This document shows, in pieces, positions 4,420-25,239 of a DNA stretch of 64,000 nucleotides (position 1 is the first letter of the stretch; every line of letters starts with the position of its first letter). The notes beneath the pieces are model-generated. The model worked only from the letters and a program-made list of their open reading frames with translations. It was not told the origin of the DNA and did not search any database. The position numbers and the translations under genes were made by a program. The DNA is from Hyphomicrobiales bacterium (GTDB lineage: Bacteria; Pseudomonadota; Alphaproteobacteria; Rhizobiales; Beijerinckiaceae): positions 13,269 through 77,268 of the forward strand of contig JAIXSR010000054.1 in assembly GCA_027484605.1 (NCBI GenBank), written 5' to 3'.

Positions 4420-4429
4420 GCGGCAGGCT

Positions 4430-4495
4430 GCCCCTCACCCGGCTTCGGGCTTCGCCCTCAGTCACCCTCTCCCCGCGGGGCGGGGCGAAGGGGGG
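4430..4495 (-). repeat. REP-like palindromic element, copy A (subfamily 1)
   Basis: The reverse complement reads ...CGCCCCGCCCCGCGGGGAGAGGGTGACTGAGGGCGAAGCCCGAAGCCGGGTGAGGGGC, nearly identical to copy D at 14793-14871. Fills the gap between two convergent stops. Confidence 0.8.
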
Positions 4496-6604
4496 TTACC
4501 CCGCCGCGAGCCCCGTCACTTCCAGCGCGAAGGCGAAAACCCGCGCGATATCGTCGAGCTGCTCGAACCGGCCGGACGAGCCGCCATGCCCGGCCCCCAT
4601 CTGCGTATGGAGCAGGACCGGGCCGCCGCCCGTCATGGTGGCGCGCAGCCGGGCGACGAATTTCGCCGGCTCCCAATAGGTGACGCGCGGATCGGTCAGG
4701 CCGCCGATCACCAGCATGGGCGGATAGGGCTTCGCGGCGATGTTGTCATAGGGCGAATAGGCCCGCATCGCCTCGAAGGCGGCCTCGTCGGTGATCGGGT
4801 TGCCCCATTCCACCCATTCGGGCGGTGTCAGCGGCAGGCTTGGATCGAGGATCGTGTTGAGACTGTCGACGAAGGGCACGTCGGCGATGATCCCGGCGAA
4901 TTTCTCGCCCGCGAGATTGGCCACGCCGCCCATCAGCATCCCGCCGGCCGAGACGCCCTGCGCGACGATCCTTTTCGGTGCGGCATAGCCTCCGGCAACG
5001 AGGAAATCCGCCACCGCGATGAAATCGGTGAAGCTGTTGATCTTCTTCTCGCGCTTGCCCTCGCGGTACCAGCGGAAGCCCTTTTCCGTCCCGCCGCGGA
5101 TATGGGCAATGGCATAGACAAACCCGCGATCGACAAGGCTCAGCCGCTCGGTCTCAAAATCGGCATCCATCGCATAGCCATAGGCGCCATAGCCGTAGAG
5201 CAGAGCCGGGGCCGTGCCGTCGACCGGCGTGTCCTTCCGCCTCAGGATCGTCACCGGCACCGTCTCGCCATCCGGTGCCGGCGCGAAGAGCCGCTCGGTC
5301 ACATAGGCGGAGGGGTCATGCCCGGAGGGCACATCCTGCACCTTGAGCACGGTCTCCACCCCGGTGGCGAGGTCGAGATCGAGCGTCACTTCCGGATCGA
5401 CCGGCGAGGAATAGGCCAGGCGCAGGATGTCGCTGTCATATTCGAGCCCGACCGTCGCGGCGATGTCGCCGATCGCGGCCTTCGGCGCCAGCACGCGCTC
5501 GGCGCCGGTCTCCCAGTGGCGGACATGGATGCGCGGCCCGTCCTCGCCGAGGCTCGACCAGATCAGCCAGCTCTTCAGGACATGCACCGAGAGCAGCATC
5601 CGGCCGGGTGTTTCCGGCACCAGCACCTCGGCGCGCGACAGATCGGTCTCGCCGACCGGCAGCGCGACGATCTTGAAATCCGCCGCCCCGCCATGGTTGG
5701 TCCGGATCACCAGCGAACCGGCATGATGGTCGATCTCGTATTCCACCCCGGGGACGCGCGGAAAGACCGGCACCGGCACCTCGGCGGCATCGTCGAGATC
5801 GAGCAGCAGCACCTCGCTGGTCTCGTGGTCATGGATCGAGATGAAGGCGTAGCGGTCATCCTGCGTGACATCGAGCCCGACGAACCAGCCCGAATCCGTC
5901 TCGCGGTAGATCTCGACATCGTCACGCTGCTTGTCACCGAGGCGATGCCGCATGACGCGGAAGGGCCGCTGCGAGGAATCCAGCTCGATGTAATAGAAGA
6001 ACCGGCAATCCCGGCCCCAGACCACCTCGCCATTGCTGCGCGAGAGCCGGTCATGGTCCTTGCCGGTGGCGAGATCGCGCACCCGGAGGATATAGCTTTC
6101 CGAGCCGGTCGTATCCGCCGCCCAGACCATGAGGCGATGATCGGGAGAGGGCTGCGTGGCGCCGATATCGAAATAATCGACATCGCGTGCCGCCTTCGGC
6201 CCGTCGAGCAGGATCTCCTCGCGTTTCTTGCCGATTTTCCGCCGGCAAAAGACCGGGTATTGCTGCCGCTTGCGGAAGCGCTCGTAATAGAGCCATTCGC
6301 CATCCTTCATCGGCGGCTCGGATTCATCCTCGCGCATGCGGCCGCGCATTTCCGCCATCAATTCCTTCTGCAGCGCCGCCAGCGGCCGGAAGGCCTCGCG
6401 CGCATGGGCGTTCTCGCGGCGCAGATAGGTGCCGATGGCCGGCGGCACGCGTTTCGGATCCTCGATCACCGCCTGCCAGTTGCGGGCCCGCAGCCAGGCA
6501 TAGTCATCCACCAGCGTGACACCATGGACCACGCGCTTCACCGGCTTGCGCGCGGCAACCGGGGGCTGGCGGGTCAGATGGGCGAAGGGCGGCAGGCGAG
6601 ACAT
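4496..6604 (-). CDS. ptrB: S9A prolyl-oligopeptidase family, oligopeptidase B (protease II)
   Basis: 702 aa. N-terminal beta-propeller region (HGVTLVDDYAWLR...). C-terminal catalytic region with GVSAGGMLMG (nucleophile Ser) and MGAGHGG (His). Confidence 0.9.
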   Translation of the reverse strand: MSRLPPFAHLTRQPPVAARKPVKRVVHGVTLVDDYAWLRARNWQAVIEDPKRVPPAIGTYLRRENAHAREAFRPLAALQKELMAEMRGRMREDESEPPMKDGEWLYYERFRKRQQYPVFCRRKIGKKREEILLDGPKAARDVDYFDIGATQPSPDHRLMVWAADTTGSESYILRVRDLATGKDHDRLSRSNGEVVWGRDCRFFYYIELDSSQRPFRVMRHRLGDKQRDDVEIYRETDSGWFVGLDVTQDDRYAFISIHDHETSEVLLLDLDDAAEVPVPVFPRVPGVEYEIDHHAGSLVIRTNHGGAADFKIVALPVGETDLSRAEVLVPETPGRMLLSVHVLKSWLIWSSLGEDGPRIHVRHWETGAERVLAPKAAIGDIAATVGLEYDSDILRLAYSSPVDPEVTLDLDLATGVETVLKVQDVPSGHDPSAYVTERLFAPAPDGETVPVTILRRKDTPVDGTAPALLYGYGAYGYAMDADFETERLSLVDRGFVYAIAHIRGGTEKGFRWYREGKREKKINSFTDFIAVADFLVAGGYAAPKRIVAQGVSAGGMLMGGVANLAGEKFAGIIADVPFVDSLNTILDPSLPLTPPEWVEWGNPITDEAAFEAMRAYSPYDNIAAKPYPPMLVIGGLTDPRVTYWEPAKFVARLRATMTGGGPVLLHTQMGAGHGGSSGRFEQLDDIARVFAFALEVTGLAAG

Positions 6605-6685
6605 CGGCGAATCCTCATCAATCGGCCGTATCTAGCCGGATTCACCGGCAGGGCGATACCACGCCTCGCACCCGGCCGCTCCGGC

Positions 6686-6762
6686 CAGCCTCCCGCTTCT
6701 CCCCCGCGGGGGAGAGGCCGACGATGCATCGCATCGGCGGGTGAGGGGGCCTTCGCCGGGGG
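6686..6762 (+). repeat. REP-like palindromic element, copy B (subfamily 2)
   Basis: CCTCCCGCTTCTCCCCCGCGGGGGAGAGGCCGACGATGCATCGCATCGGCGGGTGAGGGGGCC. Hairpin TCTCCCCC-GC-GGGGGAGA at 6698-6715. 10-bp palindrome CGATGCATCG at 6722-6731. Confidence 0.8.
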
Positions 6763-6767
6763 TTGGC

Positions 6768-7178
6768 CTATTCGCCCGGATCGGCGCGGAAGGTGAAGGC
6801 CGCGCCGTTGGTGCAATAGCGCCGCCCTTTCGGCTTGGGGCCGTCCGGGAAGACATGGCCGAGATGGCCGTCGCAGACCGCACAGCGGATCTCGATCCGC
6901 CGCATCCCGTAGGAACGGTCCTCGTGATAGCTGACCACGCCCTCCTCGACCGGTTCGAAGAAACTCGGCCAGCCGGTACCGGATTCATATTTCCCGTCGG
7001 TCCGGAAAAGGCCGGTATCGCACCCTGCGCAGTGGAACGTGCCCGTGCGCTTTTCTTCGAGGAAGGGGCCGGTGAAGGCGCATTCGGTGCCATGTTCGCG
7101 CAGGACGCGGTATTGTTCGGGCGTCAGGAGGGCGCGCCACTCCGCATCGGACTTGATGACCTTCTGAATTGCTTTCAT
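6768..7178 (-). CDS. msrB: Peptide-methionine (R)-S-oxide reductase
   Basis: [37 protein letters not shown]...CAGCDTGLF...GWPSF...[22 protein letters not shown], with both CxxC pairs and the catalytic region. Start at CAT 7176-7178. Confidence 0.95.
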
Positions 7179-7512
7179 CCCTCGGGCTCCTTGCTTGCGA
7201 AACCCGAAAATGGGCGATGCATCAGCAGACAGCAATAGATCAAACGACAATGTGAACTGGCCGCGAGCGTCGGCATCGTCTTGCGAATTCCATGATGCTG
7301 CGGAGGAAATTATGTGATATTTGTCACAAACCGCTTGCAACTATCCGAAAATATTGCTGATAGAAGAGGGTGCGGTTGGAAGCCTCGAATCGAGTGTTCA
7401 GAAGATATCTCGTTTACCAAAGCAGGTAACCCGTTTTTCAATCGTTGGCTTAAAGAAAAATGAGGAACTGGGGGGTATTCTCCGCCAGGCCACCACAGAA
7501 GGAAAAACGCTC

Positions 7513-7929
7513 ATGGCGAATACAGTCGAGCAGGGTGATCTGATCGAACTGGCAGCCGAAATCGTGTCTGCCTATGTCAGCAACAACTCTGTTCCCGCCT
7601 CTGATCTTCCGGCCTTGATCAACGAGGTCTATACTGCGCTGACACGCGTTGGCACCCCGATCGTCGAGGCGGCGGCCGAGCCGCTGAAGCCTGCGGTTTC
7701 CGTGAAGAAATCGGTGCACAACGACTACATCATCTGCCTGGAAGACGGGAAGAAGTTCAAGTCGTTGAAGCGCCATCTCCGCACGCAGTACAACATGTCG
7801 CCGGAGCAGTATCGCGAGAAGTGGGGCCTGCCGGCCGACTATCCGATGGTCGCGCCGAACTATGCCGCCGCCCGTTCGCGCCTCGCGAAGGAAATGGGCC
7901 TCGGCCAGCAGCGCCGCCGCGCGCGCTGA
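7513..7929 (+). CDS. mucR: Ros/MucR family zinc-finger transcriptional regulator
   Basis: [36 protein letters not shown]...[47 protein letters not shown] is near-consensus Ros/MucR. Preceded by a 330-bp AT-rich region. Confidence 0.95.
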
Positions 7930-7968
7930 GGTTCCGGGCGCCCCGCGCGCCCGTCCCGGCAGAGAACA

Positions 7969-7992
7969 GGCGCCCCCGCGGGCGCCTTTTTT
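7969..7992 (+). terminator. Intrinsic terminator of mucR
   Basis: GGCGCCC-CCGC-GGGCGCC followed by TTTTTT. Confidence 0.75.
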
Positions 7993-8291
7993 CTGTCCGC
8001 GACAGCGCTGATCCGATCGCTGTTCCGCGTCCTGACATCTTGCCCGAGTGTTGTCCCGCGGGCGGGGTCAGGCGGCCCTGGTTTTCCGGCCGCTGCCCTT
8101 GCCAGGCTTCAGGCGCTGTCCACAAGCTCGACGAAAGCGGGGAATATTTTTTTTCGCTCCGCCACCGGCAGCCGCTTCACCATTGAGCTTCGCCCCCGCC
8201 GCGCCCTAGCCTTCGCGCGGGGAGATCGTTGCGGAGCATGATGATGGAGCCTTCATCCAGTAATTTGATAGTATTTGGAAATATTGATTTC

Positions 8292-8687
8292 ATGGCACGG
8301 CCCCGGCGCCATCGGCGCGAGCCCGGCACGGGCGACCCCGCCTTGCTTTGTGCCCGGGCGCTCCAGCGCCAGATGCAGCAGCAGATCTGCCGCGCCTGCG
8401 CCGCCGCCTGGGCGGGCGTTCCGGCCGAAGCCCTTCTCCGCCCCGCGCGGGAGGCCGCTGCCATCGTGCAGGCACGGCACACGGCCATCTATCTCGCGCA
8501 TATCGTCTTCGGCTTTTCGCTCACGCGGGCCGGTGCGATGGTCGGCCGCGACCGCACCTCCGCGCGCCATGCCTGCCTGCGCATCGAGGAACGCCGCGAG
8601 GATGTCCGCATCGACCGGGCGCTGGATGCCCTCGGCGCGGCCGTGGAGACCTGGCTGCGCGCCTTCGGCCCGGGAGAGGTGTCATGA
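8292..8687 (+). CDS. DnaA-domain-IV-like HTH protein; candidate GafY-type GTA activator subunit
   Basis: QARHTAIYLAHIVFGFSLTRAGAMVGRDRTSARHACLRIEERREDVRID matches the DnaA C-terminal DNA-binding domain pattern (R..AmYL....S...iG...gRdhtt..HAc..iE). No AAA+ part is present. Start set at ATG 8292, because codons 8229-8291 lie in an AT-rich patch with non-coding third positions; start uncertain. Confidence 0.65.
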   Translation: MARPRRHRREPGTGDPALLCARALQRQMQQQICRACAAAWAGVPAEALLRPAREAAAIVQARHTAIYLAHIVFGFSLTRAGAMVGRDRTSARHACLRIEERREDVRIDRALDALGAAVETWLRAFGPGEVS

Positions 8688-9532
8688 GCCCGCTCCGCGA
8701 ACCGCATGCCCGCCGGAAGACGGGCAAGGAACCGGCCCGGGAGCGAGCCGGCGGGATGCCCGCCGCCGCCGCGGATCCGCGCGAGCTCTCGCGCCTGCTC
8801 GCCCGGCTTGCCGAGCCCGGCATGCATGTGGAAGCGCAGCGCGGGTGGCTGGTCTTCCGGGATGCCCGCCGCCGCGTCTCGCTGGCCAGCCGGTTCCCGG
8901 CCAGCCTGCTGCAGCCGCTGCTGGCGGCCGGCGCGATCCGTGCCCTGCCGGGCGGGTGCCATGCCATCACCCCGGAGGGCAGGTCGAGGCTGGCGCGCGA
9001 GGCTGCCGGCGAGGTGGCGGCCCAGCATCGCGAGCTGGAATTCCGGCCGGACCCTGCCCGGCCGGGCGGGATGGTCGCCGTCAACCTGCGGGAGGACCCC
9101 CTGCAGATGCTGCGGCGGCATGGCCGGATGGCGCATCTCGTCGGCCCGGCCGAGATCGAGGCCGGCCTCCGCCTGCGGAAGGATATCCGCCTCGCCGGCA
9201 CGATTCCCGCCATCACGATGGACTGGACCCGGCCCGCCGTGGATGGTTCGGGCGGCGATGGCCTCGCCATGAGTGATCTGGTCGTCGCGGCGCGGCAGCG
9301 CGTCGACCGGGCCCTCCGGGCGGTGGGGCCGGATTTCTCCGGCATCCTCGTCGATATCTGCGGCTTCGGCAAAGGGCTGGAGCGGCTGGAACGCGAGCAG
9401 GCCCTGCCGGTCCGTTCGGGCAAGATCGCGCTGGCCTTCGCCCTGAGGATGCTGGCCCGCCATTACGGGCTCGGCAACCTGGCGACCGGTGCTCCGGCGG
9501 GGCGGATCCAGTCGGTCACGTTCGGCGGATAA
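8684..9532 (+). CDS. Candidate GafZ-type GTA activator/anti-terminator subunit (DUF6456-like)
   Basis: ATGA overlap with the preceding ORF, with GGGAGAGG upstream. 282 aa ending in ...ILVDICGFGKGLERLEREQALPVRSGKIALAFALRMLARHYGL, an HTH-like segment I recall from the GafA C-terminal half and GafZ. Family assignment is from memory, not searched. Confidence 0.55.
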   Translation: MSPLREPHARRKTGKEPARERAGGMPAAAADPRELSRLLARLAEPGMHVEAQRGWLVFRDARRRVSLASRFPASLLQPLLAAGAIRALPGGCHAITPEGRSRLAREAAGEVAAQHRELEFRPDPARPGGMVAVNLREDPLQMLRRHGRMAHLVGPAEIEAGLRLRKDIRLAGTIPAITMDWTRPAVDGSGGDGLAMSDLVVAARQRVDRALRAVGPDFSGILVDICGFGKGLERLEREQALPVRSGKIALAFALRMLARHYGLGNLATGAPAGRIQSVTFGG

Positions 9533-9544
9533 CGGCCTGCCCGG

Positions 9545-9964
9545 TCAGGTGGCGCGGCCGGCTTCGGCCTTGATCCGCGCCACCATCGACGCGAGGCCAT
9601 TCGCACGCTGCGAGGTCAGGTGGTCGCGCAACCCGATCTCGGCGAAGAAGGCCTGCGCATCCGTCGCCGCGATCTCGGCCGGCGGCCGGTTCGAGAACAT
9701 CGCGATCACGAGCGCGACCAGCCCCTTGACGATCAGCGCATCGCTGTCGCCGCGTATGGCGAGCCGCCCCGTGGCCGGGTCCCGGTCCATCATCAGCCAG
9801 ACCTGGCTGGCACAGCCGGGCACCTTGTAGGCGTCGGTATAGGCCCCCGCCGGCAGGGCTGGCAGCGTCTTGCCGAGATCGATGAGATAGCGGTAGCGAT
9901 CATCCCATTCGTCGAGGAAAGCGAGATCGTCGCGGATGGTCTGGAGCGCGGCGGGGATATCCAT
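9545..9964 (-). CDS. sufE: SufE-family cysteine desulfuration (sulfur acceptor) protein
   Basis: MDIPAALQTIRDDLAFLDEWDDRYRYLIDLGKTLPALP...KVPGCASQVWL...GDSDALIVKGLVAL. Conserved Cys in the PGCxSxVW motif. Confidence 0.9.
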   Translation of the reverse strand: MDIPAALQTIRDDLAFLDEWDDRYRYLIDLGKTLPALPAGAYTDAYKVPGCASQVWLMMDRDPATGRLAIRGDSDALIVKGLVALVIAMFSNRPPAEIAATDAQAFFAEIGLRDHLTSQRANGLASMVARIKAEAGRAT

Positions 9965-9995
9965 GCCGGTCACCTGTCGCGCGCCGGCGGGAAGG

Positions 9996-10313
9996 TCAAG
10001 CCCCTTTTCGTGCCGCCACGGGCCCGGGCCGTCGCGGGGGCAGGGGAAGGCCCTCGACGATCCGGCGCTCGGGCTCGGCCATCGGCGGGGCGGGGGGGGC
10101 CGCCGCGGCCGGGCCGGTGGCCGGGGCCAGGGCCGCGCCCGCCCGCCTTGCCGCCTCGGCGCAGAGTGCCGGCTTCTCCTGGCACAGGCCGATCGCCCGG
10201 GCGGGCAATTGCTCCGCCGCCATCCGGATCTCTGATTCGGTCTGCCGCCGGTCTTCCGCCGGAACGGTGACGTAGTAGAGCGCGGCAATCGCCAAGGTGG
10301 CACGCCAGAACAT
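9996..10313 (-). CDS. Small exported/membrane hypothetical protein (DUF5330-like)
   Basis: MFWRATLAIAALYYVTVPAEDRRQTESEIRMAAEQLPARAIGLCQEKPALCAEAARR... Strong G/C at third positions. The start at CAT 10311-10313 leaves an N-terminal hydrophobic helix. The family name is tentative. Confidence 0.5.
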   Translation of the reverse strand: MFWRATLAIAALYYVTVPAEDRRQTESEIRMAAEQLPARAIGLCQEKPALCAEAARRAGAALAPATGPAAAAPPAPPMAEPERRIVEGLPLPPRRPGPVAARKGA

Positions 10314-10527
10314 GGTGCTTCTCCCATCCCGCAGGCAGGATAGGGCCAAGCCGTCGCGATCCCGTTGGCAATTTTCGTCGAATTTTACCGATCTGGCCTT
10401 TCTTTCGGGCCCGGAAGTGCTTCGCCGGGCGCTGCCCGATCCCGGAGAGAGGTTGTTCACCATAGTCGCGGAAAGGCGGGGCCAGGGCCGTGACAGCCGG
10501 CGAAACAGGGCCGTGCCGGGCGTCATC

Positions 10528-14792: not shown

Positions 14793-14871
14793 CCCCTCAC
14801 GCGGCCTGCCCCTCGCCCCGCTTGCGGGGAGAGGGTGGTCGAGGGCAGAGCCCGCGACCGGGTGAGGGGGC
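14793..14871 (+). repeat. REP-like palindromic element, copy D (subfamily 1, with both inverted ends)
   Basis: CCCCTCAC...CCTCGCCCCGCTTGCGGGGAGAGGGTGGTCGAGGGCAGAGCCCGCGACCGGGTGAGGGGGC. The ends CCCCTCAC and GTGAGGGG are inverted repeats. Lies between convergent stops. Confidence 0.8.
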
Positions 14872-14899
14872 CCGGTTCGCGATCACCCACGCCGCACCC

Positions 14900-18232: not shown

Positions 18233-18370
18233 GGGGCCGGCATGCAGGCGGAAGGAGAGGGGGACAGTTGCGTCTCAATATTTCAATATACTTATAACAC
18301 AGGGCGGAAGGCGCGTCCAAAACCGCCGCCGCCTCTTGACGCCCCGCCGCCGGCTTGCACACAAGAACGG

Positions 18371-18847
18371 ATGGATGCGCCGCCGCCGTTCTGGAAGACA
18401 AAGAGCCTCGCCGAGATGACCGAGGCGGAATGGGAAAGCCTCTGCGACGGCTGCGGCCGCTGCTGCCTCATCAAGATGGAGGATGAGGATTCCGGACAGT
18501 TTTATTTCACCGATGTGGCCTGCCGGCTTTTCGACACCGCGTCCTGCCGCTGCCGCGACTATCCCAACCGCGACCGCGAAGTGCCCGATTGCGTGCGGTT
18601 GACGCCTGAAAATGCCGGCAGCTTCGGCTGGATGCCGCCCAGCTGCGCCTATCGCCTTCTGGCGGAAGGCAAATCCCTGCCGGATTGGCACCCCCTTGTC
18701 AGCGGCCGCCCCGAGAGCGTGCGCGAGGCCGGTGCCAGCGTCGCCGGGCGGGTCCATGCCCTCGAGGATGATCTCTCGCTGCCCGAACTGGTCGAGCGAA
18801 TCCGCGTCTGGCCCGGCCGTTGGCCCCGCAAGAAAAGAAGCGGATAA
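18371..18847 (+). CDS. ycgN: YcgN-family cysteine-cluster protein (UPF0260)
   Basis: [67 protein letters not shown]. Only the last 159 codons of track ORF 16277-18847 are real. The rest is the antisense shadow of the PBP gene. Confidence 0.9.
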
Positions 18848-18901
18848 ACGACTGGATTCTCTTCATTATATGAATTAAATCCGCGATTACGAAAAATATC
18901 C

Positions 18902-18930
18902 TTGACGCCGCGACGGTCTTGAGGCATAAA
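18902..18930 (+). promoter_or_regulatory. Candidate sigma70-type promoter of the GTA cluster
   Basis: TTGACG (18902-18907), a 17-nt spacer, then CATAAA (18925-18930). Sits just downstream of a 50-bp AT-rich block (18850-18900) that contains a GANTC (18855-18859). Pattern match only. Confidence 0.35.
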
Positions 18931-18954
18931 CCACCCACGTTCCCGAATTGCGCT

Positions 18955-19211
18955 CCAGCCCTCCCGCCTCTCCCCGCCGGGGAGACGCCGACGATGCGCA
19001 GCATCGGCGGGTGAGGGGGCGGAACATGGAGTGGCGCTCGAAGCCCCTCCAGCCCTCCCGCCTCTCCCCGATGTGGGGAGGCCGACGGCGCATAGCGCTG
19101 GCGGGTGAGGGGTCCGACCATGCATGGCTTCGTCGCGGCCTCTCCAGCCAGCCTCTCACTTCTCCCCGCCGGGGAGTGGCCGACGGCGCATAGCGCCGGC
19201 GGGTGAGGGGC
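18955..19211 (+). repeat. Three tandem REP-like elements (C1 18955-19020, C2 19049-19112, C3 19145-19211), subfamily 2
   Basis: Each copy follows CCAGCC(CT)CCCGCCTCTCCCCG-loop-GGGGAG-GCCGACG..GCGCA..GC..CGGCGGGTGAGGGG. All share one orientation with a period of 94-96 bp. Each holds two stem-loops, for example TCTCCCC-GCC-GGGGAGA at 18969-18985. Confidence 0.85.
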
Positions 19212-19286
19212 TGCCTCGGTGAAGGCGCATCCCGCGCCCCTCCACCCCATGCCCAATCCCCCAATCCCCCCATCCCCGGAGGCCCC

Positions 19287-19643
19287 ATGCTCCCGAAACC
19301 TGCCCGGCCCCGCCGGCGGGCACGCCGCCCGTTGATCCACCGGCTCTGGTCGGCCGCGGAACGCCAGGTCGCGGAAATCGAGGCCCGGCTCGCCAGCCTC
19401 TCCGGCGACCCGGCCTTGCTCGAACGCGATGCCAAGACCCTTGCCGTCATCGCGCGGACCCTGCGCGATCTCGTTGCCCTCGATACCGAAACGGCCCCGG
19501 ACCCTCCGGCGCCGGAAAGGGACGCCCATGCCGGAAATCCTGTCCGCTCGCTCGAGGCCTTCCGTGACGAGCTTGCGCAGCGCCTTGATGCATTGCGTCG
19601 AGAACGGGCAGGCCCGGACCCTGCTGGAGGGGATGGGGCCTGA
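19287..19643 (+). CDS. GTA g1-position protein (candidate small terminase)
   Basis: CCGGAGG SD then MLPKPARPRRRARRPLIHRLWSAAERQVAEIEARLASL...: a basic N-terminus plus a coiled coil. Assigned by position only. The last 116 nt overlap terL. Confidence 0.5.
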   Translation: MLPKPARPRRRARRPLIHRLWSAAERQVAEIEARLASLSGDPALLERDAKTLAVIARTLRDLVALDTETAPDPPAPERDAHAGNPVRSLEAFRDELAQRLDALRRERAGPDPAGGDGA

Positions 19644-20904
19644 AGCGCTGGCGCGTTTCCTCGCCGACTGGCCGCTCTTCGCCCGGCCCGACCAGCTGCC
19701 GCCCGAGGGCGCGCAGGGCGGCGGGCCCTGGTCGACATGGCTGGTCCTGGGCGGGCGCGGCGCCGGCAAGACGCGCACCGGCGCCGAATGGGTGCGCGGG
19801 CTGGCCCTCGGCCTGCCGCCTTTCGCCGGGCGCCCGGCGGGGCGGATCGCCATCGTGGCGGAAACCCTGCAGGACCTGCGCGAGGTGATGGTGGAGGGCG
19901 TATCCGGCCTGCTCGCCATCCACCCGCCCGGGCAGCGCCCGCTCTGGCTCGCCTCGCGCCGCCGGCTCGAATGGCCGAACGGCGCGGTGGCGCAGGGCTT
20001 CTCCGCCGAGGATCCGGAATCGCTGCGCGGTCCGCAATTCGAGGCGGCCTGGTGCGATGAACTCGCCAAATGGAACCAGGCCGAGGCCACATTCGACATG
20101 CTGCAATTCGGCCTGCGCCTCGGTGAATGGCCCCGGCAGGTCATCACGACCACGCCGCGCCCGACCCGGCTGCTGAAGCGCCTCGCGGCCGATCCGCGCA
20201 CCGCGGTCAGCCGCGCCGCGACGCGGGCCAATGCCGCGCATCTCGCGCCGCATTTCCTCGCCACCATTGTCGGCCGCTATGCCGGCACCGCTCTGGGCCG
20301 GCAGGAACTGGACGGCGAATTCGTCGAGGAGCGGCCCGATGCGCTGTTCCGCCGCGAGGCCATCGAAGCCGGGCGGGTCGGGGCGGCGGAGGATTGCCGC
20401 CGCATCGTCGTGGCGGTCGATCCGCCGGCCGGCGGGGTTCGGGGCGGGCGCTGCGGCATCGTCGCGGCGGGCCTTGCGGCTTCCGGCCTTGCCTATGTGC
20501 TGGAAGATGCCTCGCTCGAACGCGCCACGCCCGAAGCCTGGGCGGGCCGGGCCATCGCCACCTATCGCCGGCTGCAGGCCGATGCCCTGCTCGTCGAGGT
20601 GAACCAGGGCGGCGAGATGGTGCGGTCCGTGCTGGCGACGGTCGACCCGGCAGTGCCGGTCACCATGCTCCGCGCCCGGCGCGGCAAGCATGCCCGGGCC
20701 GAACCCGTCGCCGCGCTCTATGCGCAGTGCCGTGTCCGCCATGCCGGCGCCTTCCCGGCGCTCGAGGAGGAGATGACGATGTTCGGCCCCGATGGCCTAC
20801 CCGGCGGCCGCTCGCCCGACCGGCTCGATGCGCTGGTCTGGGCCATCACCCATCTCTGCCTGCAGGGCGAGGCCGCCGCGCCGCGCATCCGCCGGCTGGA
20901 GTGA
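19528..20904 (+). CDS. terL: GTA/phage terminase large subunit (DNA-packaging protein), RcGTA g2 equivalent
   Basis: ...LADWPLFARPDQLPPEG...WSTWLVLGGRGAGKTRTGAEWV (Walker A)...VAVDPP... By hand count, third-position G/C in 19528-19643 is about 85% in this frame and about 56% in the g1 frame, which supports ATG 19528. Alternatives are ATG 19588 and 19633. Confidence 0.9.
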   Translation: MPEILSARSRPSVTSLRSALMHCVENGQARTLLEGMGPEALARFLADWPLFARPDQLPPEGAQGGGPWSTWLVLGGRGAGKTRTGAEWVRGLALGLPPFAGRPAGRIAIVAETLQDLREVMVEGVSGLLAIHPPGQRPLWLASRRRLEWPNGAVAQGFSAEDPESLRGPQFEAAWCDELAKWNQAEATFDMLQFGLRLGEWPRQVITTTPRPTRLLKRLAADPRTAVSRAATRANAAHLAPHFLATIVGRYAGTALGRQELDGEFVEERPDALFRREAIEAGRVGAAEDCRRIVVAVDPPAGGVRGGRCGIVAAGLAASGLAYVLEDASLERATPEAWAGRAIATYRRLQADALLVEVNQGGEMVRSVLATVDPAVPVTMLRARRGKHARAEPVAALYAQCRVRHAGAFPALEEEMTMFGPDGLPGGRSPDRLDALVWAITHLCLQGEAAAPRIRRLE

Positions 20905-20960: not shown

Positions 20961-22133
20961 ATGATTCCCTGGCTCACCCGGCTTTTCGGCCGGACGGCGC
21001 CGCCGCGCCGCAAATCCACCATTCCGCTCGTTGCCCTGCATGGCCCGGGCGGCGGATTCCTGCCCGCGCGGCAGGGGGCCGGCCTCGTGGCGGCGGGCTA
21101 TCACCGCAACGCCATCGTCTATCGCTGCGTGCGGCTGGTGGCCGAGGCCGCGGCGAGTATCAGCTGGACCCTGCTCATCGATGGCCGCGAGGCGCCGGAC
21201 CATCCGCTGGCCCGGCTGCTGGAACGGCCCAATCCCGGCGCCAGCGGCACCGACCTGTTCGAGGCGCTCTACGGCCATCTCCTGCTCTCCGGCAATGGCT
21301 ATGTCGCCCGCGTCACCGGCCATGCCGGGCCGCTGGCGCTCCATGCGCTCCGGCCGGACCGGCTCAGCCTCGTGCCCGGGCCGGATGGCTGGCCGCTGGC
21401 CTATGATTATGCCGCCGGCGGCGCGGCGCTGCGCTTTTCCGCCGGTCCGGATGGCCCGGGCGACCTGCTCCATATCCGCCTGTTCGACCCGCTCAACGAC
21501 CAGCTCGGCTTCGCCCCGCTGGCGGCGGCGGAAACCGCGCTCGCCATGCATGACGCCGCCAATCGCTGGAACAAGGCGCTGCTCGACAATTCGGCCCGCC
21601 CTTCGGGCGCGCTGGTCTATGCTGCCACCGACAGCATGACGGAGACACAGTTCGACCGCCTGCGCGACGAGCTGGAAACGGCTTTCCAGGGCGCGGGCAA
21701 TGCCGGAAGGCCGATCCTGCTCGAGGGCGGGCTGGACTGGAAGCCGCTCTCGCTCAGCCCGCGCGACATGGATTTCCACGCGGCGCAGGCCGGCGCGGCG
21801 CGGGAGATCGCGCTCGCCTTCGGCGTGCCGCCGATGCTGCTCGGCCTGCCGGGCGACAATACCTACGCGAATTACGCCGAGGCCAACCGGGCGCTGCTGC
21901 GGCTGACGGTGCTGCCCATGGTGCAGCGGATGCAGGCGGCCTTCGCCCATTGGTTGCAGCCGCCGGAAGGCGGGATCCTGCGCTTCCGCCCCGATCTCGA
22001 TGCGATCGAGGCTTTGGCCGAGGAACGCGAGGCCCTCTGGCGCCGCGTCTCGGCCGCGCCCTTCCTCAGCGATGACGAGAAACGCGAGGCGCTCGGCTAT
22101 GGCCGGCAGGCGCGTCCGTCCCCTTCCGCATGA
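20961..22133 (+). CDS. HK97-family phage portal protein (RcGTA g3 equivalent)
   Basis: 390 aa. ...YHRNAIVYRCVRLVAEAAASISW...HPLARLLERPNP...LLLSGNGY...FGVPPMLLGLPGDNTYANYAEANRAL is the typical portal signature. Confidence 0.95.
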   Translation: MIPWLTRLFGRTAPPRRKSTIPLVALHGPGGGFLPARQGAGLVAAGYHRNAIVYRCVRLVAEAAASISWTLLIDGREAPDHPLARLLERPNPGASGTDLFEALYGHLLLSGNGYVARVTGHAGPLALHALRPDRLSLVPGPDGWPLAYDYAAGGAALRFSAGPDGPGDLLHIRLFDPLNDQLGFAPLAAAETALAMHDAANRWNKALLDNSARPSGALVYAATDSMTETQFDRLRDELETAFQGAGNAGRPILLEGGLDWKPLSLSPRDMDFHAAQAGAAREIALAFGVPPMLLGLPGDNTYANYAEANRALLRLTVLPMVQRMQAAFAHWLQPPEGGILRFRPDLDAIEALAEEREALWRRVSAAPFLSDDEKREALGYGRQARPSPSA

Positions 22134-22333: not shown

Positions 22334-22496
22334 TCCCGCCGCGTCCCCCGCCACCCTGTTCCGCCGCTTCCTGGCGCTGCTGGCCCGGCTGCAGCCGTCG
22401 CCCGGCAAGGCCCCCGCCGCGCCCGAGATCAAGGGCCGCATCACCCGGCTCGACCCGGCCGCCCGCCGCGACAGCCGGGGAAAGCCGCGCGCATGA
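22314..22496 (+). CDS. Second small ORF between portal and protease (hypothetical, 60 aa)
   Basis: Overlaps the previous ORF by 20 nt. Its TGA overlaps the protease ATG (ATGA at 22493-22496). About 90% G/C at third positions by hand count. No recognisable family. Confidence 0.35.
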   Translation: MPRRTPDPAASPATLFRRFLALLARLQPSPGKAPAAPEIKGRITRLDPAARRDSRGKPRA

Positions 22497-23077
22497 AGGC
22501 CGGCCCCTTTTCCGCTTCCCCGAATTCCGGCCGGCGCCGCCCTCCGCCGGCCGGACGGGATATCCGCCCCCGGCCCCTCTCCCCCGACGGGGCGGATATC
22601 CCGGCTTCTCCCCCGCCCGATGCCGGGCTCTTCGAAGGCTATGCCAGCCTGTTCGGCGTGATGGATCTCGGCCGCGACGTGGTCATGCCCGGCGCGTTCC
22701 GCCATTCGCTGACGCGGCGCGGCGCGGGGGGCATCCGCCTGCTCTGGCAGCATGATCCGGCCCGGCCGATCGGCCGCTGGACGCGCCTCGACGAGGATGG
22801 CCGCGGCCTCCGCGTGGCGGGCCGGCTCGATCTCGGGCAATCGCTCGCCCGCGAGGTGCATGGGCTCATGCGGCGCGGCCTCGTGGATGGCCTCTCCATC
22901 GGCTACCGCACCGAGCGCGAGCGCCGCGACCCCGAAACCGGCCTGCGCCGGCTGGACGAGGTGGATCTCTGGGAGATCTCGCTCGTCACCTTCCCGATGC
23001 TGCCGCAGGCCCGCGTCACCGCCATCAAGGCGATGCCCGGCCCGCTGCCCGCCTTCCCCGCGATCCGTCCGCTGTGA
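22493..23077 (+). CDS. HK97-family prohead maturation protease (RcGTA g4 equivalent) with an atypical N-terminal extension
   Basis: FEGYASLFGVMDLGRDVVMPGAF...LLWQHD...PIG...GLSIGY...LWEISLVTFPMLPQARV. ATG 22493 is the only in-frame start upstream of the conserved core. This leaves about 46 low-complexity residues ahead of it. Confidence 0.9.
   Translation: MKAGPFSASPNSGRRRPPPAGRDIRPRPLSPDGADIPASPPPDAGLFEGYASLFGVMDLGRDVVMPGAFRHSLTRRGAGGIRLLWQHDPARPIGRWTRLDEDGRGLRVAGRLDLGQSLAREVHGLMRRGLVDGLSIGYRTERERRDPETGLRRLDEVDLWEISLVTFPMLPQARVTAIKAMPGPLPAFPAIRPL
22556..22603. repeat. 15-bp perfect inverted repeat with an 18-nt loop, inside the protease 5' coding region
   Basis: CGGGATATCCGCCCC (22556-22570), loop CGGCCCCTCTCCCCCGAC, GGGGCGGATATCCCG (22589-22603). 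The loop resembles the left arm of the REP hairpin. Confidence 0.85.
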
Positions 23078-23109
23078 CGGCCCGCCCCCTCCCGCCAAAG
23101 GACCCCGCC

Positions 23110-24309
23110 ATGGAACCGACCGAAACCCCGATCCGCGCCCCCGAGACCAAGATCATGGAAACCTACGAGGCTTTCCGCCAGGCCAATGACGAGAGCCTCG
23201 CCGAGGGCCAGCGCAAGGCCGCGCCCGACATCCTGCTCGAGGAGAAGGTCGAGCGGATCGGGCGCGAGCTGGACCGGCTGAGCATGAATGCCCAGCGCCC
23301 GCCTCTGGCCGGCGCCGGCTCCGCGCTTTCGCCGGAGCGGCTGGAGCACAAGCTCGCCTTCGACGCCTATCTCCGCAAGGGCCAGACCGAGCCCTTGCGC
23401 CTGATCGAGGCCAAGGCGCTGAACGGCGCCATCGGGCCGGATGCCGGCTATCTCGTGCCGCCGGATATCGAGGCGGCCGTGCTTTCGCGCATGGCCGGCC
23501 TCTCGCCGATCCGCGGCATCGCCTCCGTCCGCTCGCTGGCCGGCACCAGCCTGAAGAAGGCGGTCTCGCCCGAAGGCGCGCATCAGGGCTGGGCCAGCCT
23601 CGGCGCGCCCTCCAGCGCCATCACGCCCGGCCTCTATGCCGAGCTGGGCTTCCAGACCATGGAGCTTTTCGCCCAGCCCGCGGCGACGCAGGCCCTGCTC
23701 GACGATGCGGCGGTGGATGTGGAATCCTGGATCGGCGAGGAGATCGAGCTGACCTTCGCCGAGGCCGAGAGCGAGGCCTTCGTCAAGGGCGACGGCATCA
23801 GCCGGCCGCGCGGCTTCCTTGCCTATCCGCAGGTGCCCGAGGCCCAGTGGAGCTGGGGCCAGATCGGGAGCATCGCCACCGGCGCCGCCGGCGCCTTTCC
23901 GGCCTCCATGCCGTCCGACATCCTGATCGAGCTGGCCCATGCCGTGGGCTCGGTCTACCGGCAGAATGCCTGTTTTGTCATGAACCGCCGGACGCAGAGC
24001 GCGATCCGCCGCTTCAAGGACACGACGGGCAATTATCTCTGGGCGCCGCCGACCCTGCTGGGTGGCAAGGCGACGATCCTCAACTTCCCCGTGATCGAGG
24101 CGGAGGCCATGCCGGATATCGCGCCCGACAGCCCCGCCATCGCCTTCGGGGATTTCCGGCGCGGCTATCTCGTGCTCGACCGCGTCGGCATCCGCGCCCT
24201 GCGGGATCCCTATTCGGCCAAGCCCTATGTGCTGTTCTACACCACCAAGCGCGTGGGCGGCGGCATGCAGGATTTCCGGGCGATCAAGCTGCTGCGGTTT
24301 GCGGCGTGA
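23110..24309 (+). CDS. HK97-family major capsid protein (RcGTA g5 equivalent)
   Basis: 399 aa. An N-terminal delta/scaffold-like helical region (ETYEAFRQANDESLAE...), then ...GPDAGYLVPPDIEAAVL...FVKGDGISRPRGFL...NYLWAPP...PYVLFYTTKRVGGGMQDFRAIKLLRFA. Confidence 0.95.
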   Translation: MEPTETPIRAPETKIMETYEAFRQANDESLAEGQRKAAPDILLEEKVERIGRELDRLSMNAQRPPLAGAGSALSPERLEHKLAFDAYLRKGQTEPLRLIEAKALNGAIGPDAGYLVPPDIEAAVLSRMAGLSPIRGIASVRSLAGTSLKKAVSPEGAHQGWASLGAPSSAITPGLYAELGFQTMELFAQPAATQALLDDAAVDVESWIGEEIELTFAEAESEAFVKGDGISRPRGFLAYPQVPEAQWSWGQIGSIATGAAGAFPASMPSDILIELAHAVGSVYRQNACFVMNRRTQSAIRRFKDTTGNYLWAPPTLLGGKATILNFPVIEAEAMPDIAPDSPAIAFGDFRRGYLVLDRVGIRALRDPYSAKPYVLFYTTKRVGGGMQDFRAIKLLRFAA

Positions 24310-24357
24310 GGGCAGGGGCCGCGCGATGCCGGCCCCTACCCGCTGCCGCTGGTCCTT

Positions 24358-24414
24358 GCCCCTCACCCGCTCGCTGACGCTCGCGACCTCTCCCCCGAGG
24401 GGAGAGGTGGGCGG
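24358..24414 (-). repeat. REP-like palindromic element, copy E
   Basis: The reverse complement reads CCTCTCCCCTCGGGGGAGAGGTCGCGAGCGTCAGCGAGCGGGTGAGGGGC. It fills the gap between the convergent capsid and protease stops. A separate 8-bp hairpin AGGGGCCG/CGGCCCCT lies at 24314-24337. Confidence 0.8.
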
Positions 24415-25239
24415 TCAGTCCGCCAGCGAAAGCGGGCGCCCGCTCGCCAGGTTGCGGCCGCCCCAGCCGCGCACGATCTGGTCGATCCAGGCGCGGTGCG
24501 GTGCGACGCGCACAGCCTGGGCCGTGGTGCCGCAGGTCTGGGCATTGCCGAATTTCTCGCGGCCATAGACCACGCCGACCACGGTGCTGCCATCGAGCAC
24601 CGGCCCGCCGGAATCGCCCGTGCATACGGCGAAATCGCTGAGATCGGCATCGGTGCTGTAGCCGAGCCGGAGGAAGCGCGGATAGAGCCGCGGCAGCACG
24701 GTGACCTTCGCGCTGCGCAGGACACCGGCGCTGGCCTCGTCCCGGTCGGCGGCGAGGCCGAACCCGGCAATCGTGCGGCGCACGCCGACCTGATGCGCCG
24801 AATCATCCGATTCGAGCACCATCGGCCGGAACCGCGCCGGCAGGGGGCTGTCGAGCCGGATCAGCGCGAGATCGATCGAGACGCGCGCCTTGGGCGAGAA
24901 GCCGGGATTGACCGCGCGGGCCATGACCCGCTGCAGCACATGCGAGCCCTCTTCCTTGTAGGCCACCGCGACCTGCCGGTTGCCGGCCACGCAATGCGCG
25001 GCGGTGAGGATGATCTCGGATGTGATGATCGTGCCGGTGCAGGCGCCGTGCTTGTTGCCTTGCTTCGAAAGAACCATGACGAGATGCGAGGCCAGCCCGC
25101 CATCCGGGCTGGCGGCCTGACCGCCAAGCGCCAGGGCAGCGCCCGGTGCAAGGAAGGCCAGCCCCGGAACGAGGGCAGCGCAGAAGGCGACAGACGCGGC
25201 GGCGGAGGAGCGGAACGGCTTTTTCACGCCGCGGAACAT
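24415..25239 (-). CDS. Secreted trypsin-like (S1/chymotrypsin-fold) serine protease, inserted on the opposite strand inside the GTA cluster
   Basis: Signal peptide MFRGVKKPFRSSAAASVAFCAALVPGLAFLAPGAALA. Catalytic triad contexts LTAAHCV (His), IDLALIRL (Asp) and CTGDSGGPV (Ser). The start could be 25284. Confidence 0.85.
   Translation of the reverse strand: MFRGVKKPFRSSAAASVAFCAALVPGLAFLAPGAALALGGQAASPDGGLASHLVMVLSKQGNKHGACTGTIITSEIILTAAHCVAGNRQVAVAYKEEGSHVLQRVMARAVNPGFSPKARVSIDLALIRLDSPLPARFRPMVLESDDSAHQVGVRRTIAGFGLAADRDEASAGVLRSAKVTVLPRLYPRFLRLGYSTDADLSDFAVCTGDSGGPVLDGSTVVGVVYGREKFGNAQTCGTTAQAVRVAPHRAWIDQIVRGWGGRNLASGRPLSLAD

Follow-up and report, generated by a model that had tools for sequence, protein, structure and literature searches.

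A cell that produces GTAs dies in doing so, and its operon therefore has to be kept tightly off. To our knowledge, Caulobacter has so far given the sole mechanistic picture of how read-through into a GTA operon is prevented and then released. The window analysed here, a continuous 64-kb stretch of DNA, contains an RcGTA-type cluster whose first gene is preceded by a candidate promoter and three GC-rich repeats. Why should such an array lie between a promoter and genes that have to stay silent? The genes that define the setting are the following:

18386..18847, + strand: ycgN-like cysteine-cluster gene (Pfam CxxCxxCC), conserved upstream neighbour of the GTA cluster
19287-19643, + strand: g1 (TerS-like), with SD GGAGG at 19278-19282 and ATG at 19287
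8292..8687, + strand: gafY-like gene (131 aa) with a DnaA-type helix-turn-helix (Pfam Bac_DnaA_C, E 1.7e-8)
8684..9532, + strand: gafZ-like gene (282 aa) with DUF6456 (Pfam E 1.6e-32), its start overlapping the gafY stop (ATGA)

The pbp1a-ycgN-g1 synteny holds in L003-L009 and in many other loci. The SD and ATG of g1 lie where the earlier note on this DNA had placed them, and an independent Logan contig gives the identical g1 call; g1 has been equated with TerS (PMC9638019). The head genes follow on the + strand in RcGTA-type order: large terminase (19588-20904; Pfam Terminase_6N/6C), portal (20961-22133; Phage_portal), prohead protease (22493-23077; Peptidase_S78) and major capsid (23074-24309; Phage_capsid). 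Since g1 and the terminase gene overlap (19588-19643), no intergenic space is left after g1. The regulatory locus at 8292-9532, read as one gene in the earlier note, consists of two overlapping genes in different frames. From their domains, the gafY-like gene is predicted to encode the activator half of the GTA regulator and the gafZ-like gene the anti-terminator half. The pair sits between mucR and sufE, and the mucR / DnaA-like / DUF6456 / sufE synteny is known for Hyphomicrobiales (PMC9638019). GafZ is homologous to the C-terminal part of GafA, according to the Caulobacter report (PMC11150451).

Between ycgN and the array lie three elements:

18866..18901, + strand: AT-rich upstream promoter element, which includes TACGAAAAATATCC (family consensus TAGGAAwwTwwwTC) and is conserved in alignments
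18902..18930, + strand: core promoter, its spacer bearing the family palindrome CAGCGT-N-ACGCTG in degenerate form
18936..18952, + strand: conserved box CACGTTCCCGAATTGCG (family CAYGCTCCnGAAnTG), where the transcript is predicted to start

The AT-rich block of 50 bp described earlier behind the ycgN stop is borne out by a GC content of 0.33-0.40 over ~55 nt, against ~0.7 in the surroundings. The candidate promoter TTGACG-17-CATAAA (18902-18930) also holds, with the -35 TTGACG at 18902-18907, a 17-nt spacer and the -10 CATAAA at 18925-18930. A generic sigma-70 scan flagged no promoter in 18300-19700, so that the promoter is established through comparison. Phylogenetic footprinting finds the layout of -35, spacer, -10 and +1 box conserved in relatives, where a family promoter of the form TAGGAA...TTGACA...TAGnnT...CAYGCTCCnGAAnTG precedes the RcGTA-type gene order. 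The box holds many invariant columns of the relatives' alignment A2, and its exact pattern matches in 16 other loci, upstream of a terminase gene in all 15 of those inspected. A profile of the GTA promoter has a single match in the window (18866-18952, E 1e-13) and matches 118 of 163 related loci; no second copy of the GTA promoter motif turned up in the 64 kb, the region upstream of gafY included. Judged by these alignments, the GTA promoter is real and conserved across Hyphomicrobiales. A sigma-54 or ECF reading of the box was rejected by eye, the spacing being unlike GG-N10-GC or GGAAC-N16-CGTT. The spacer palindrome of the window (CGCCGC-G-ACGGTC) is the most degenerate of the family; relatives carry CAGCGT-N-ACGCTG at the matching position. 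From the spacing to the -10 we infer a TSS near 18937. The first base of REP1 is the last one of the conserved box. As the array thus follows directly on the box at the predicted transcript start, it would be transcribed, within an untranslated leader of ~350 nt.

The array itself is made up of direct copies of a ~73-nt GC-rich element, all on the + strand, found by both a repeat search and a covariance model (R1; 81-87 bits, E about 1e-17):

18952..19024, + strand: REP-like unit 1 (R1 81.3 bits; fold -42.7 kcal/mol), Y-shaped, abutting the conserved box
19046..19118, + strand: REP-like unit 2 (R1 82.3 bits; fold -38.5 kcal/mol, z -1.1)
19144..19216, + strand: REP-like unit 3 (R1 86.8 bits; fold -45.2 kcal/mol, z -3.2)

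The repeat search delimits the copies at 18953-19028, 19047-19122 and 19145-19220, with 100, 80 and 68% identity to the first. Three copies of 64-67 bp, 94-96 bp apart, had been claimed earlier; three direct copies are indeed present, but their spacing is 94 and 98 nt. The triple copy number is read from the window assembly alone, the sole independent assembly of the exact sequence (L001) beginning inside REP3. Aligned against each other, the units match along their spacers too, which indicates tandem duplication: the array looks like one ~96-bp unit duplicated in tandem rather than a designed triple. The unit belongs to a dispersed family with 7 copies in the window (57-87 bits by the covariance model), all intergenic. 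Outside the array there are exactly four:

4425..4500, - strand: single REP copy sharing bases with the stop codon of a prolyl oligopeptidase gene on the minus strand (4496-6604)
6681..6754, + strand: single REP copy 14 nt past the msrB stop codon (msrB 6768-7340, minus strand)
14801..14875, + strand: single REP copy flanked by convergent stop codons (14786 and 14900)
24353..24422, - strand: single REP copy (R1 58.6 bits) within the GTA cluster, 44 nt past the capsid stop codon

As the earlier note had it, these four stand singly beside gene 3' ends, each at most 50 nt past a stop codon. REP-like elements occupy the position equivalent to the capsid site in L012, L016 and L034. No Rfam family reaches its gathering score anywhere in the window, and 18700-19400 has only weak chance matches (E of at least 0.1); a known riboswitch or sRNA as the identity of the array is ruled out by this lack of an Rfam match. 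A protein-coding reading, through an ORF at 18948-19193 (+) and several on the minus strand, was rejected because these are open frames through GC-rich repeats, lie wholly within the array and fall in a ycgN-g1 spacer without conservation there in relatives.

The two GC-rich stem-loops per copy seen earlier are recovered by folding, and an outer stem additionally closes both hairpins into a three-way junction, giving each unit of the array the shape of a Y. Unit folds reach -38 to -45 kcal/mol, and their z-scores against shuffles are merely -1.1 to -3.2, owing to the very GC-rich composition. Over 23 copies of the family, 94.7% of cells pair in the Y fold and 8 of its 20 pairs show compensatory changes. 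None of 500 shuffles reaches the observed level and slid controls pair at ~50%, so the comparison of copies supports the Y fold by covariation. The leader folded as a whole is no more stable than its shuffles (z -1.3).

How do these units compare with repeats of this kind elsewhere? Like the REPs and BIMEs of enterobacteria and pseudomonads, they are extragenic, multi-copy, imperfect palindromes, mostly just past stop codons and sometimes clustered. At ~70 nt they are twice as long, and they form a three-way junction, whereas the classical E. coli REP is a single imperfect palindrome of 20-40 nt that folds into a single hairpin. The array also lies in a 5' leader instead of a 3' UTR. Its direct orientation differs from the alternating one of BIMEs (PMC2817692). 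E. coli REPs are partly Rho-dependent attenuators with C-rich sequence downstream, and they stabilise mRNA 3' ends. Within the Rhizobiales, the RIMEs that Osteras et al. reportedly described in 1995 are said to be GC-rich composite palindromes of ~100 nt dispersed in intergenic regions, and the window units resemble them by that description.

Could the hairpins terminate transcription on their own? The earlier observation that they lack U-tracts stands: two scanners found no T-run behind any unit and no canonical intrinsic terminator in the leader, and a terminator scan returned none in 18300-19700 and nothing convincing across the whole GTA cluster. Downstream of the third unit, the leader has a further element:

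19228..19277, + strand: C-rich, G-poor tract (of its 50 nt, 33 are C and 3 are G), candidate Rho-loading (rut) site

No other 50-mer in the 64 kb, on either strand, is so strongly skewed towards C over G (GC skew about -0.6). The tract is untranslated and stays unpaired in the leader MFE fold, and thus has the predicted characteristics of a rut region, which is untranslated, unstructured, C-rich and G-poor. A similar C-rich tract is present in L002.

These elements suggest a transcriptional barrier. The three repeats would represent a dispersed Y-shaped REP-like element, duplicated in tandem inside the long 5' leader of an RcGTA-type operon. Transcripts started at the conserved GTA promoter (-35 at 18902, -10 at 18925, TSS near 18937) would have to pass ~280 nt of untranslated and very stable REP structure, followed by the unstructured C-rich tract, before they reached the g1 ribosome-binding site. 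Unmodified RNAP would pause at the REP hairpins and be released and, as U-tracts are missing, we infer that termination at or after the REPs most likely proceeds through Rho loading on the C-rich tract. RNAP carrying the GafZ homolog, acquired at the promoter, would read through, with the palindrome-bearing spacer between -35 and -10 as the likely loading site. The barrier would block read-through from ycgN as well, and it would substitute for the canonical intrinsic terminator found in the leaders of many relatives. We assign a probability of roughly 0.45 to this reading of the array, namely a REP-derived, probably Rho-assisted leader barrier that is bypassed by GafZ-modified RNAP and parallels Caulobacter terGTA. 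Two features of the locus would weaken it: GafZ loading is less certain here, the spacer palindrome being so degenerate, and translation could block Rho, the SD and ATG of g1 following directly on the C-rich tract.

The parallel with terGTA draws on the Caulobacter work. GafZ-mediated anti-termination, which the earlier note took as established in this organism, was shown there by Tran et al. 2024 (PMC11150451). The terGTA of Caulobacter crescentus consists of three GC-rich direct repeats in tandem that contain imperfect inverted repeats. It is a strong terminator, passed only by transcription that starts at PgtaT in the presence of GafZ; the 5' UTR there is 251 nt, and the GafZ-binding palindrome lies between -35 and -10 (PMC11150451). 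Compared by described architecture, not by sequence, both loci have three tandem GC-rich repeats in the same orientation that contain inverted repeats. Both place them within the GTA operon, downstream of a promoter with a long untranslated leader, a promoter that is GafY/GafZ-dependent in Caulobacter and predicted to be so here. Both have split gafY and gafZ genes; the palindrome between -35 and -10 that Caulobacter has, and that the relatives of the window carry in their own form, is in the window a degenerate candidate. The differences are that the terGTA units are 150 bp long and come after the first gene, gtaT, whereas the window repeats have a period of 94-98 bp and precede the first gene; that terGTA is an experimental terminator, while the window array is a candidate read from sequence; and that the window units derive from a dispersed genomic repeat family, the accessible text noting nothing alike for terGTA. 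The layout also recalls lambda Q at PR'/tR' and P. aeruginosa AlpA, where a factor element between -35 and -10 is followed a few hundred nt downstream by a barrier that silences a late or lysis operon. Tran et al. make this analogy too, GafZ being unrelated to Q and AlpA in sequence and structure (PMC11150451). However, tR' is a canonical intrinsic terminator, in contrast to the candidate barrier without a U-tract.

A genome scan returned one close MAG (L002, 96%), a metagenome scan that used the terminase had no match beyond 75% identity, and a search for YcgN homologs gave short Logan contigs (89-90%) that break at the REPs. L002 has no promoter, and carries an ortholog of unit 3, the only array unit with one there (its flanks align with L002 5535-5607), together with an inverted copy. 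In contigs of the L164 type, from the closer sister group, a T8 intrinsic terminator is followed by REPs, and the 210 nt of leader on the L168 contig contain no REP. Downstream of the conserved box, a GC hairpin with a T-run is found in L003-L006, L009, L063, L120 and the L164 type, and its stems differ between taxa yet remain paired. In more distant relatives an intrinsic terminator is present and REPs are absent, L007, L008 and L082 have neither REP nor canonical terminator, and Roseibium L050 independently has REP-like elements and a terminator in its GTA leader. Terminators and REPs therefore turn over among relatives. Canonical terminators occur in 26 of 97 related leaders, where shuffled leaders average 2.45 (6 at most), an enrichment of ~10-fold. 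A leader gate across relatives is thus frequent, not universal, and even the closest relatives fail to conserve the array. L002 and L169 have rearrangement breakpoints at the promoter-REP zone.

For the triple-hairpin gate proposed in the earlier note, the outcome is divided. In its favour, many relatives carry an intrinsic terminator where the REPs sit here, and a rut-like tract follows REP3. Against a barrier stand the lack of conservation of the array, the 71 of 97 leaders without a canonical terminator and the missing U-tracts; the modest folding scores of the whole leader and of REP2 would count against it too. It is also possible that the placement of REPs reflects just insertion tolerance, such elements being found at many intergenic sites regardless of GTA. 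This leads to a serious rival of the barrier, itself a tentative reading: the repeats may be passengers, selfish or neutral insertions in a tolerant untranslated region, perhaps at a former terminator hairpin, that were duplicated by slippage and affect the GTA cluster as any structured spacer would. Copies of the family are spread over the window at ordinary 3'-end positions and over other genomes at unrelated intergenic sites, and among the closest relatives copy number and orientation vary. The spacers show simple tandem duplication, and most related leaders function without a canonical terminator. In Caulobacter, the GTA leader tolerates loss of +90 to +214 (PMC11150451). An inert array, however, does not account for the ~10-fold enrichment of terminators in related leaders, nor for the joint occurrence of REPs and terminators in the leaders of two separate lineages (the L164 type and Roseibium L050). 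Nor does it account for an extreme rut-like tract placed right after the array and kept in L002, and in Caulobacter a terminator built from repeats in this architecture has been proven by experiment.

Alternatively, the array could chiefly end and stabilise the ycgN transcript and shield the GTA cluster, its effect on transcripts from the GTA promoter being incidental. The position of all four single copies close behind stop codons agrees with this, as does the behaviour of E. coli REPs, which make the mRNA upstream of them more stable and dampen read-through. The stretch from the ycgN stop to the GTA promoter has no terminator in the window, and none was seen there in L003-L008, which leaves the leader element as the first hairpin barrier. 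But 105 nt and a complete conserved promoter separate the ycgN stop from the array, and we consider this function improbable as the main one. In addition, whatever stops ycgN read-through also stops unmodified transcripts from the GTA promoter, so that shielding overlaps with the barrier and does not exclude it.

Least probable is a role in RNA processing or stability (RNase III or RNase E sites, a stable leader RNA) or at the DNA level (IHF or gyrase binding, recombination hot spots, roles reported for BIMEs). In its favour, the folds are very stable, the breakpoints in L002 and L169 fit REP-associated recombination or misassembly at repeats, and IHF is needed at the Caulobacter GTA promoter, but no sequence feature marks a specific nuclease or protein site, Rfam gives no match, and 5' protection normally wants a hairpin at the extreme 5' end, where here an unpaired conserved box starts the transcript.

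The REP-derived barrier can be extended to a broader proposal, which we regard as rather doubtful. A mobile REP element found genome-wide, amplified in tandem, would have been co-opted in place of an ancestral intrinsic terminator as the promoter-proximal gate of the GTA operon, itself a domesticated virus, working with the adjacent rut site and opened only by GafZ-loaded RNAP. More generally, Hyphomicrobiales GTA operons would share a Q-like loading promoter with its palindrome between -35 and -10, a conserved initial transcribed box and a fast-evolving leader terminator.

This locus and about 120 related leaders point to a promoter architecture conserved across an order, including an element at the GafZ-binding position. 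They also suggest a recurring leader barrier with interchangeable parts, either canonical terminators of unrelated sequence or REP-type repeats. Should the REPs prove inert, the locus would be a clean natural case of terminator loss in a GTA leader, and would raise the question of what keeps the cluster silent. If they act as proposed, one specific operon may have recruited REP elements, whose function has been under debate for long, as parts of its regulation. Were the broader proposal true, GafZ-type anti-termination would be an ancestral rule and not a peculiarity of Caulobacter.

The first gene of the RcGTA-type gene-transfer-agent (GTA) cluster is separated from ycgN by a 439-nt spacer, which starts at its 5' end with an AT-rich block (GC 0.33-0.40). 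The features of this region are:

18386-18847, ycgN (Pfam CxxCxxCC), upstream neighbour of the GTA cluster
18902-18907, -35 element TTGACG, after the AT-rich block and followed by a 17-nt spacer
18925-18930, -10 element CATAAA, 3' of that spacer
19278-19282, Shine-Dalgarno sequence (SD) GGAGG of g1, 3' of a C-rich tract, with the ATG at 19287
19287-19643, g1 (GTA cluster)
19588-20904, large terminase (GTA cluster)
20961-22133, portal (GTA cluster)
22493-23077, prohead protease (GTA cluster)
23074-24309, major capsid (GTA cluster)

The candidate promoter TTGACG-17-CATAAA, proposed in an earlier note and missed by a generic sigma-70 scan, is confirmed as real by its conservation. Alignment of the ycgN-g1 spacer of the window with those of seven relatives (70-79% terminase identity) gives a conserved block, TAGGAAwwTwwwTC - TTGACA - (C)AGCGT-N-ACGCTG - n - GGTAGnnT - n6-7 - CAYGCTCCnGAAnTG, which is also found in Ancylobacter, Methylocystis, Methylopila, Chelatococcus, Beijerinckia and metagenomic loci. 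The profile of this block matches upstream of the cluster in 118 of 163 terminase-bearing loci and once in the window (18866-18952, E 1e-13), where the promoter is the most diverged of the versions compared, yet keeps all components. Its 17-nt spacer (18908-18924) reads CGCCGC-G-ACGGTC, a degenerate copy of the family palindrome. In many Hyphomicrobiales GTA promoters (loci L005, L020, L034, L063, L090, L120 and others) a 6+6 palindrome, CAGCGT-N-ACGCTG, overlaps the end of the -35 and occupies the spacer. According to Tran et al. (2024, PMC11150451), the GafZ-binding palindrome of Caulobacter was mapped between -35 and -10, the same position but a different sequence.

A conserved box begins about 6 nt 3' of the -10 and would mark where the transcript begins, the predicted transcription start site (TSS) being near 18937. 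Its conservation as an initial transcribed sequence suggests that it may be a pause or loading signal for the anti-terminator, or else an RNA element. The box (CAYGCTCCnGAAnTG, predicted +1 to +16; 18936-18952 in the window; 118 loci) shows stronger conservation than the -10 hexamer. The first REP unit starts at its last base, so the array would be transcribed within a 5' leader of ~350 nt; the Caulobacter GTA leader is given as 251 nt in PMC11150451.

A repeat search places three direct GC-rich copies in the leader (18953-19028, 19047-19122 and 19145-19220), with 100, 80 and 68% identity to the first. The three tandem, same-orientation REP copies described earlier are thus borne out, while their spacing, put at 94-96 nt, is 94 and 98 nt. 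A covariance model built from seven window copies delimits the units at 18952-19024, 19046-19118 and 19144-19216 (81-87 bits). In each, both of the stem-loops previously claimed are predicted, enclosed by an outer stem (CCCTCnCGCC / GGCGGGTGAGGG; -38 to -45 kcal/mol); the fold is equally good on either strand, and its z-scores are modest owing to GC content. Among 23 copies from the window and other genomes, standard pairs fill 94.7% of pair cells, with compensatory changes at 8 of 20 pairs, including 4/4 pairs of the second hairpin. This pairing level was reached by none of 500 shuffles and slid controls were ~50% paired, in a test somewhat favoured by an alignment fitted to the covariance model.

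How did the array arise? Because the units can be aligned with one another including their ~28-nt spacers, it appears to be a tandem duplication of a single ~96-bp unit and not three separate insertions. The copy number of three is read from the window sequence alone, since L001, an independent short-read contig of the same sequence, begins inside unit 3. Terminator scans found no U-tracts in the leader after the REP units, as had been remarked, and Rfam returned nothing for the leader region.

Downstream of unit 3, a C-rich tract (19228-19277; 33 C and 3 G per 50 nt) is the top C-over-G skewed 50-mer of the 64 kb, both strands counted, and is unpaired in the predicted leader fold. Within it, 19254-19277 carries a short tandem motif (CCCAATCC, CCCAATCC, CCCCATCC). 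Just upstream, CCTCC at 19240-19244 is complementary to the SD of g1; the MFE fold does not predict that the SD is occluded.

As a dispersed REP-like repeat, the window element is nothing unusual; it exceeds the classical E. coli REP in length and branching. The covariance model finds exactly four further copies in the 64-kb window, all single and all within 50 nt downstream of a stop codon, in agreement with the earlier note, which has four single copies next to gene 3' ends; two have the orientation of the upstream gene and two the opposite:

4425-4500, minus strand, after the prolyl oligopeptidase gene
6681-6754, plus strand, after msrB
14801-14875, plus strand, at a convergent gene pair
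24353-24422, minus strand, after the GTA capsid gene

Related elements are present in other Hyphomicrobiales, frequently within GTA clusters: six copies in locus L115 (4254-6774), copies between terminase and portal in L016 (7345-7492), copies 3' of the capsid gene in L012, L016 and L034, as at 24353-24422 in the window, and copies in the GTA leader of L050. In several genera, REP-like elements thus recur between the genes of GTA clusters, especially directly 3' of the major capsid and terminase genes.

The leaders of related loci are organised as follows:

L003-L006, L009, L162 (terminase 70-79% identity; YcgN 84% for L162): box, short conserved ORF-like stretch, strong hairpin and T-run
L063, L120 and others (more distant): terminators of unrelated sequence at the same leader position
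L164-L167 (YcgN 89%): promoter, hairpin, T8 terminator, then REP elements
L168 (YcgN 90%): REP absent from the 210 nt of leader present on the contig
L002, a close MAG (terminase 96%): unit 3 ortholog and C-rich tract kept, without units 1-2 and promoter
L169 (YcgN 89%): breakpoint exactly at the -35 (1164-1260), ycgN and upstream promoter element kept
L050, Roseibium (distant): REP-like elements and terminator in the GTA leader, independently

In the first group the hairpin and T-run sit ~100 nt before the g1 SD, and the stems vary by taxon with pairing kept (GGGCCCCG/CGGGGCCC, GGGTCTGCA/TGCAGACCC, GGGCTCGCG/CGCGGGCCC and others). The L164-L167 promoter, TTGACA-17-CATAAA, is very like that of the window, and these contigs break at the REP elements. 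In L002 (5380-5700) the cluster lies downstream of an inverted REP and, before that, of a gene; by eye, the C-terminus of its product reads like that of a type-I-secretion membrane-fusion (HlyD-type) protein. L002 and L169 reflect either real rearrangement at the promoter-REP zone or misjoining of assemblies at repeats; L002 is the only close genome, and its junction could be such a misassembly. Canonical intrinsic terminators occur in 26 of 97 leaders <1 kb (shuffled leaders: mean 2.45, maximum 6). From this comparison we conclude that a leader barrier is frequent and turns over rapidly, that REPs have colonised the leader in the immediate clade of the window, and that the window itself has lost the canonical terminator and amplified the REP.

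The ORF-like stretch (L003 5427-5530; L004 5412-5515; L005 5466-5560; L006 5463-5565; L007 5529-; L009 5466-; L162 ~4714-4800), which the window lacks, shows peptide-level conservation as M.I......(I/F)P.C.G.II......GPFF, with synonymous variation of Cys, Pro and Ile codons. It precedes and traverses the leader terminator, where GGGCCCTTTTTT encodes GPFF, and is in frame with g1 and stop-free in 9/9 loci; a strong SD and ATG belonging to g1 itself lie further 3', and one gene caller joins the stretch to g1, which in L162 gives a product of 211 aa. The stretch might represent a leader peptide, an RNA hairpin (CCCGnTTnTGCAnCGGG) or a long isoform of g1 that only anti-terminated transcripts yield.

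The region 8292-9532, given in the earlier note as one interval, holds two genes in different frames, within a regulatory island (7321-10327):

7321-7929, mucR
8292-8687, gafY-like DnaA-HTH gene
8684-9532, gafZ-like DUF6456 gene, overlapping the former by ATGA
9545-10327, minus strand, sufE

The identical arrangement was reported for Hyphomicrobiales gafA loci (Sherlock and Fogg, 2022, PMC9638019), and split gafY/gafZ is the form studied in Caulobacter (PMC11150451). The GTA promoter motif is absent upstream of the gafY-like gene. An AT-rich stretch (8255-8291) immediately precedes that gene, and an intrinsic-terminator-like hairpin and T-run lies 3' of mucR (~7969-7995).

As described in PMC11150451, Caulobacter terGTA consists of three tandem GC-rich direct repeats with imperfect inverted repeats, a strong terminator passed by RNAP only if GafZ is loaded at PgtaT. 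In E. coli, REPs attenuate transcription, in part through Rho, and stabilise 3' ends, and C-rich sequence downstream of them is typical. In the most likely working model (probability roughly 0.45), unmodified RNAP, coming from ~18937 or reading through from ycgN, would pause within the array, Rho would load on the 19228-19277 tract and release it, and RNAP modified by GafZ would pass into g1; we infer the TSS, the termination, the part played by Rho and the bypass through GafZ. The main rival, less probable, sees in the array a tolerated passenger; its variable copy number, its origin by simple duplication and the many related leaders that have no terminator at all fit this view. Insulation of ycgN overlaps with the barrier model, and nothing specific supports RNA-processing or DNA-level roles.

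The array resembles terGTA in architecture and context; it differs in that it lies before the first gene (terGTA after), has units of another length and is built from a dispersed repeat. Unlike a BIME, it lacks alternating orientation and its unit is not a single short palindrome, and unlike an intrinsic terminator it has no U-tract. We describe it as a REP-derived candidate leader barrier of a GafYZ-controlled GTA operon. GTA specialists may find more interest in the comparative results: a promoter conserved across the order whose ZBE position holds a palindrome, a conserved +1 box and leader-terminator enrichment, for which a non-exhaustive literature search found no prior description. The REP-like elements inside GTA clusters, should they hinder RNAP, would form internal barriers that likewise require anti-termination.
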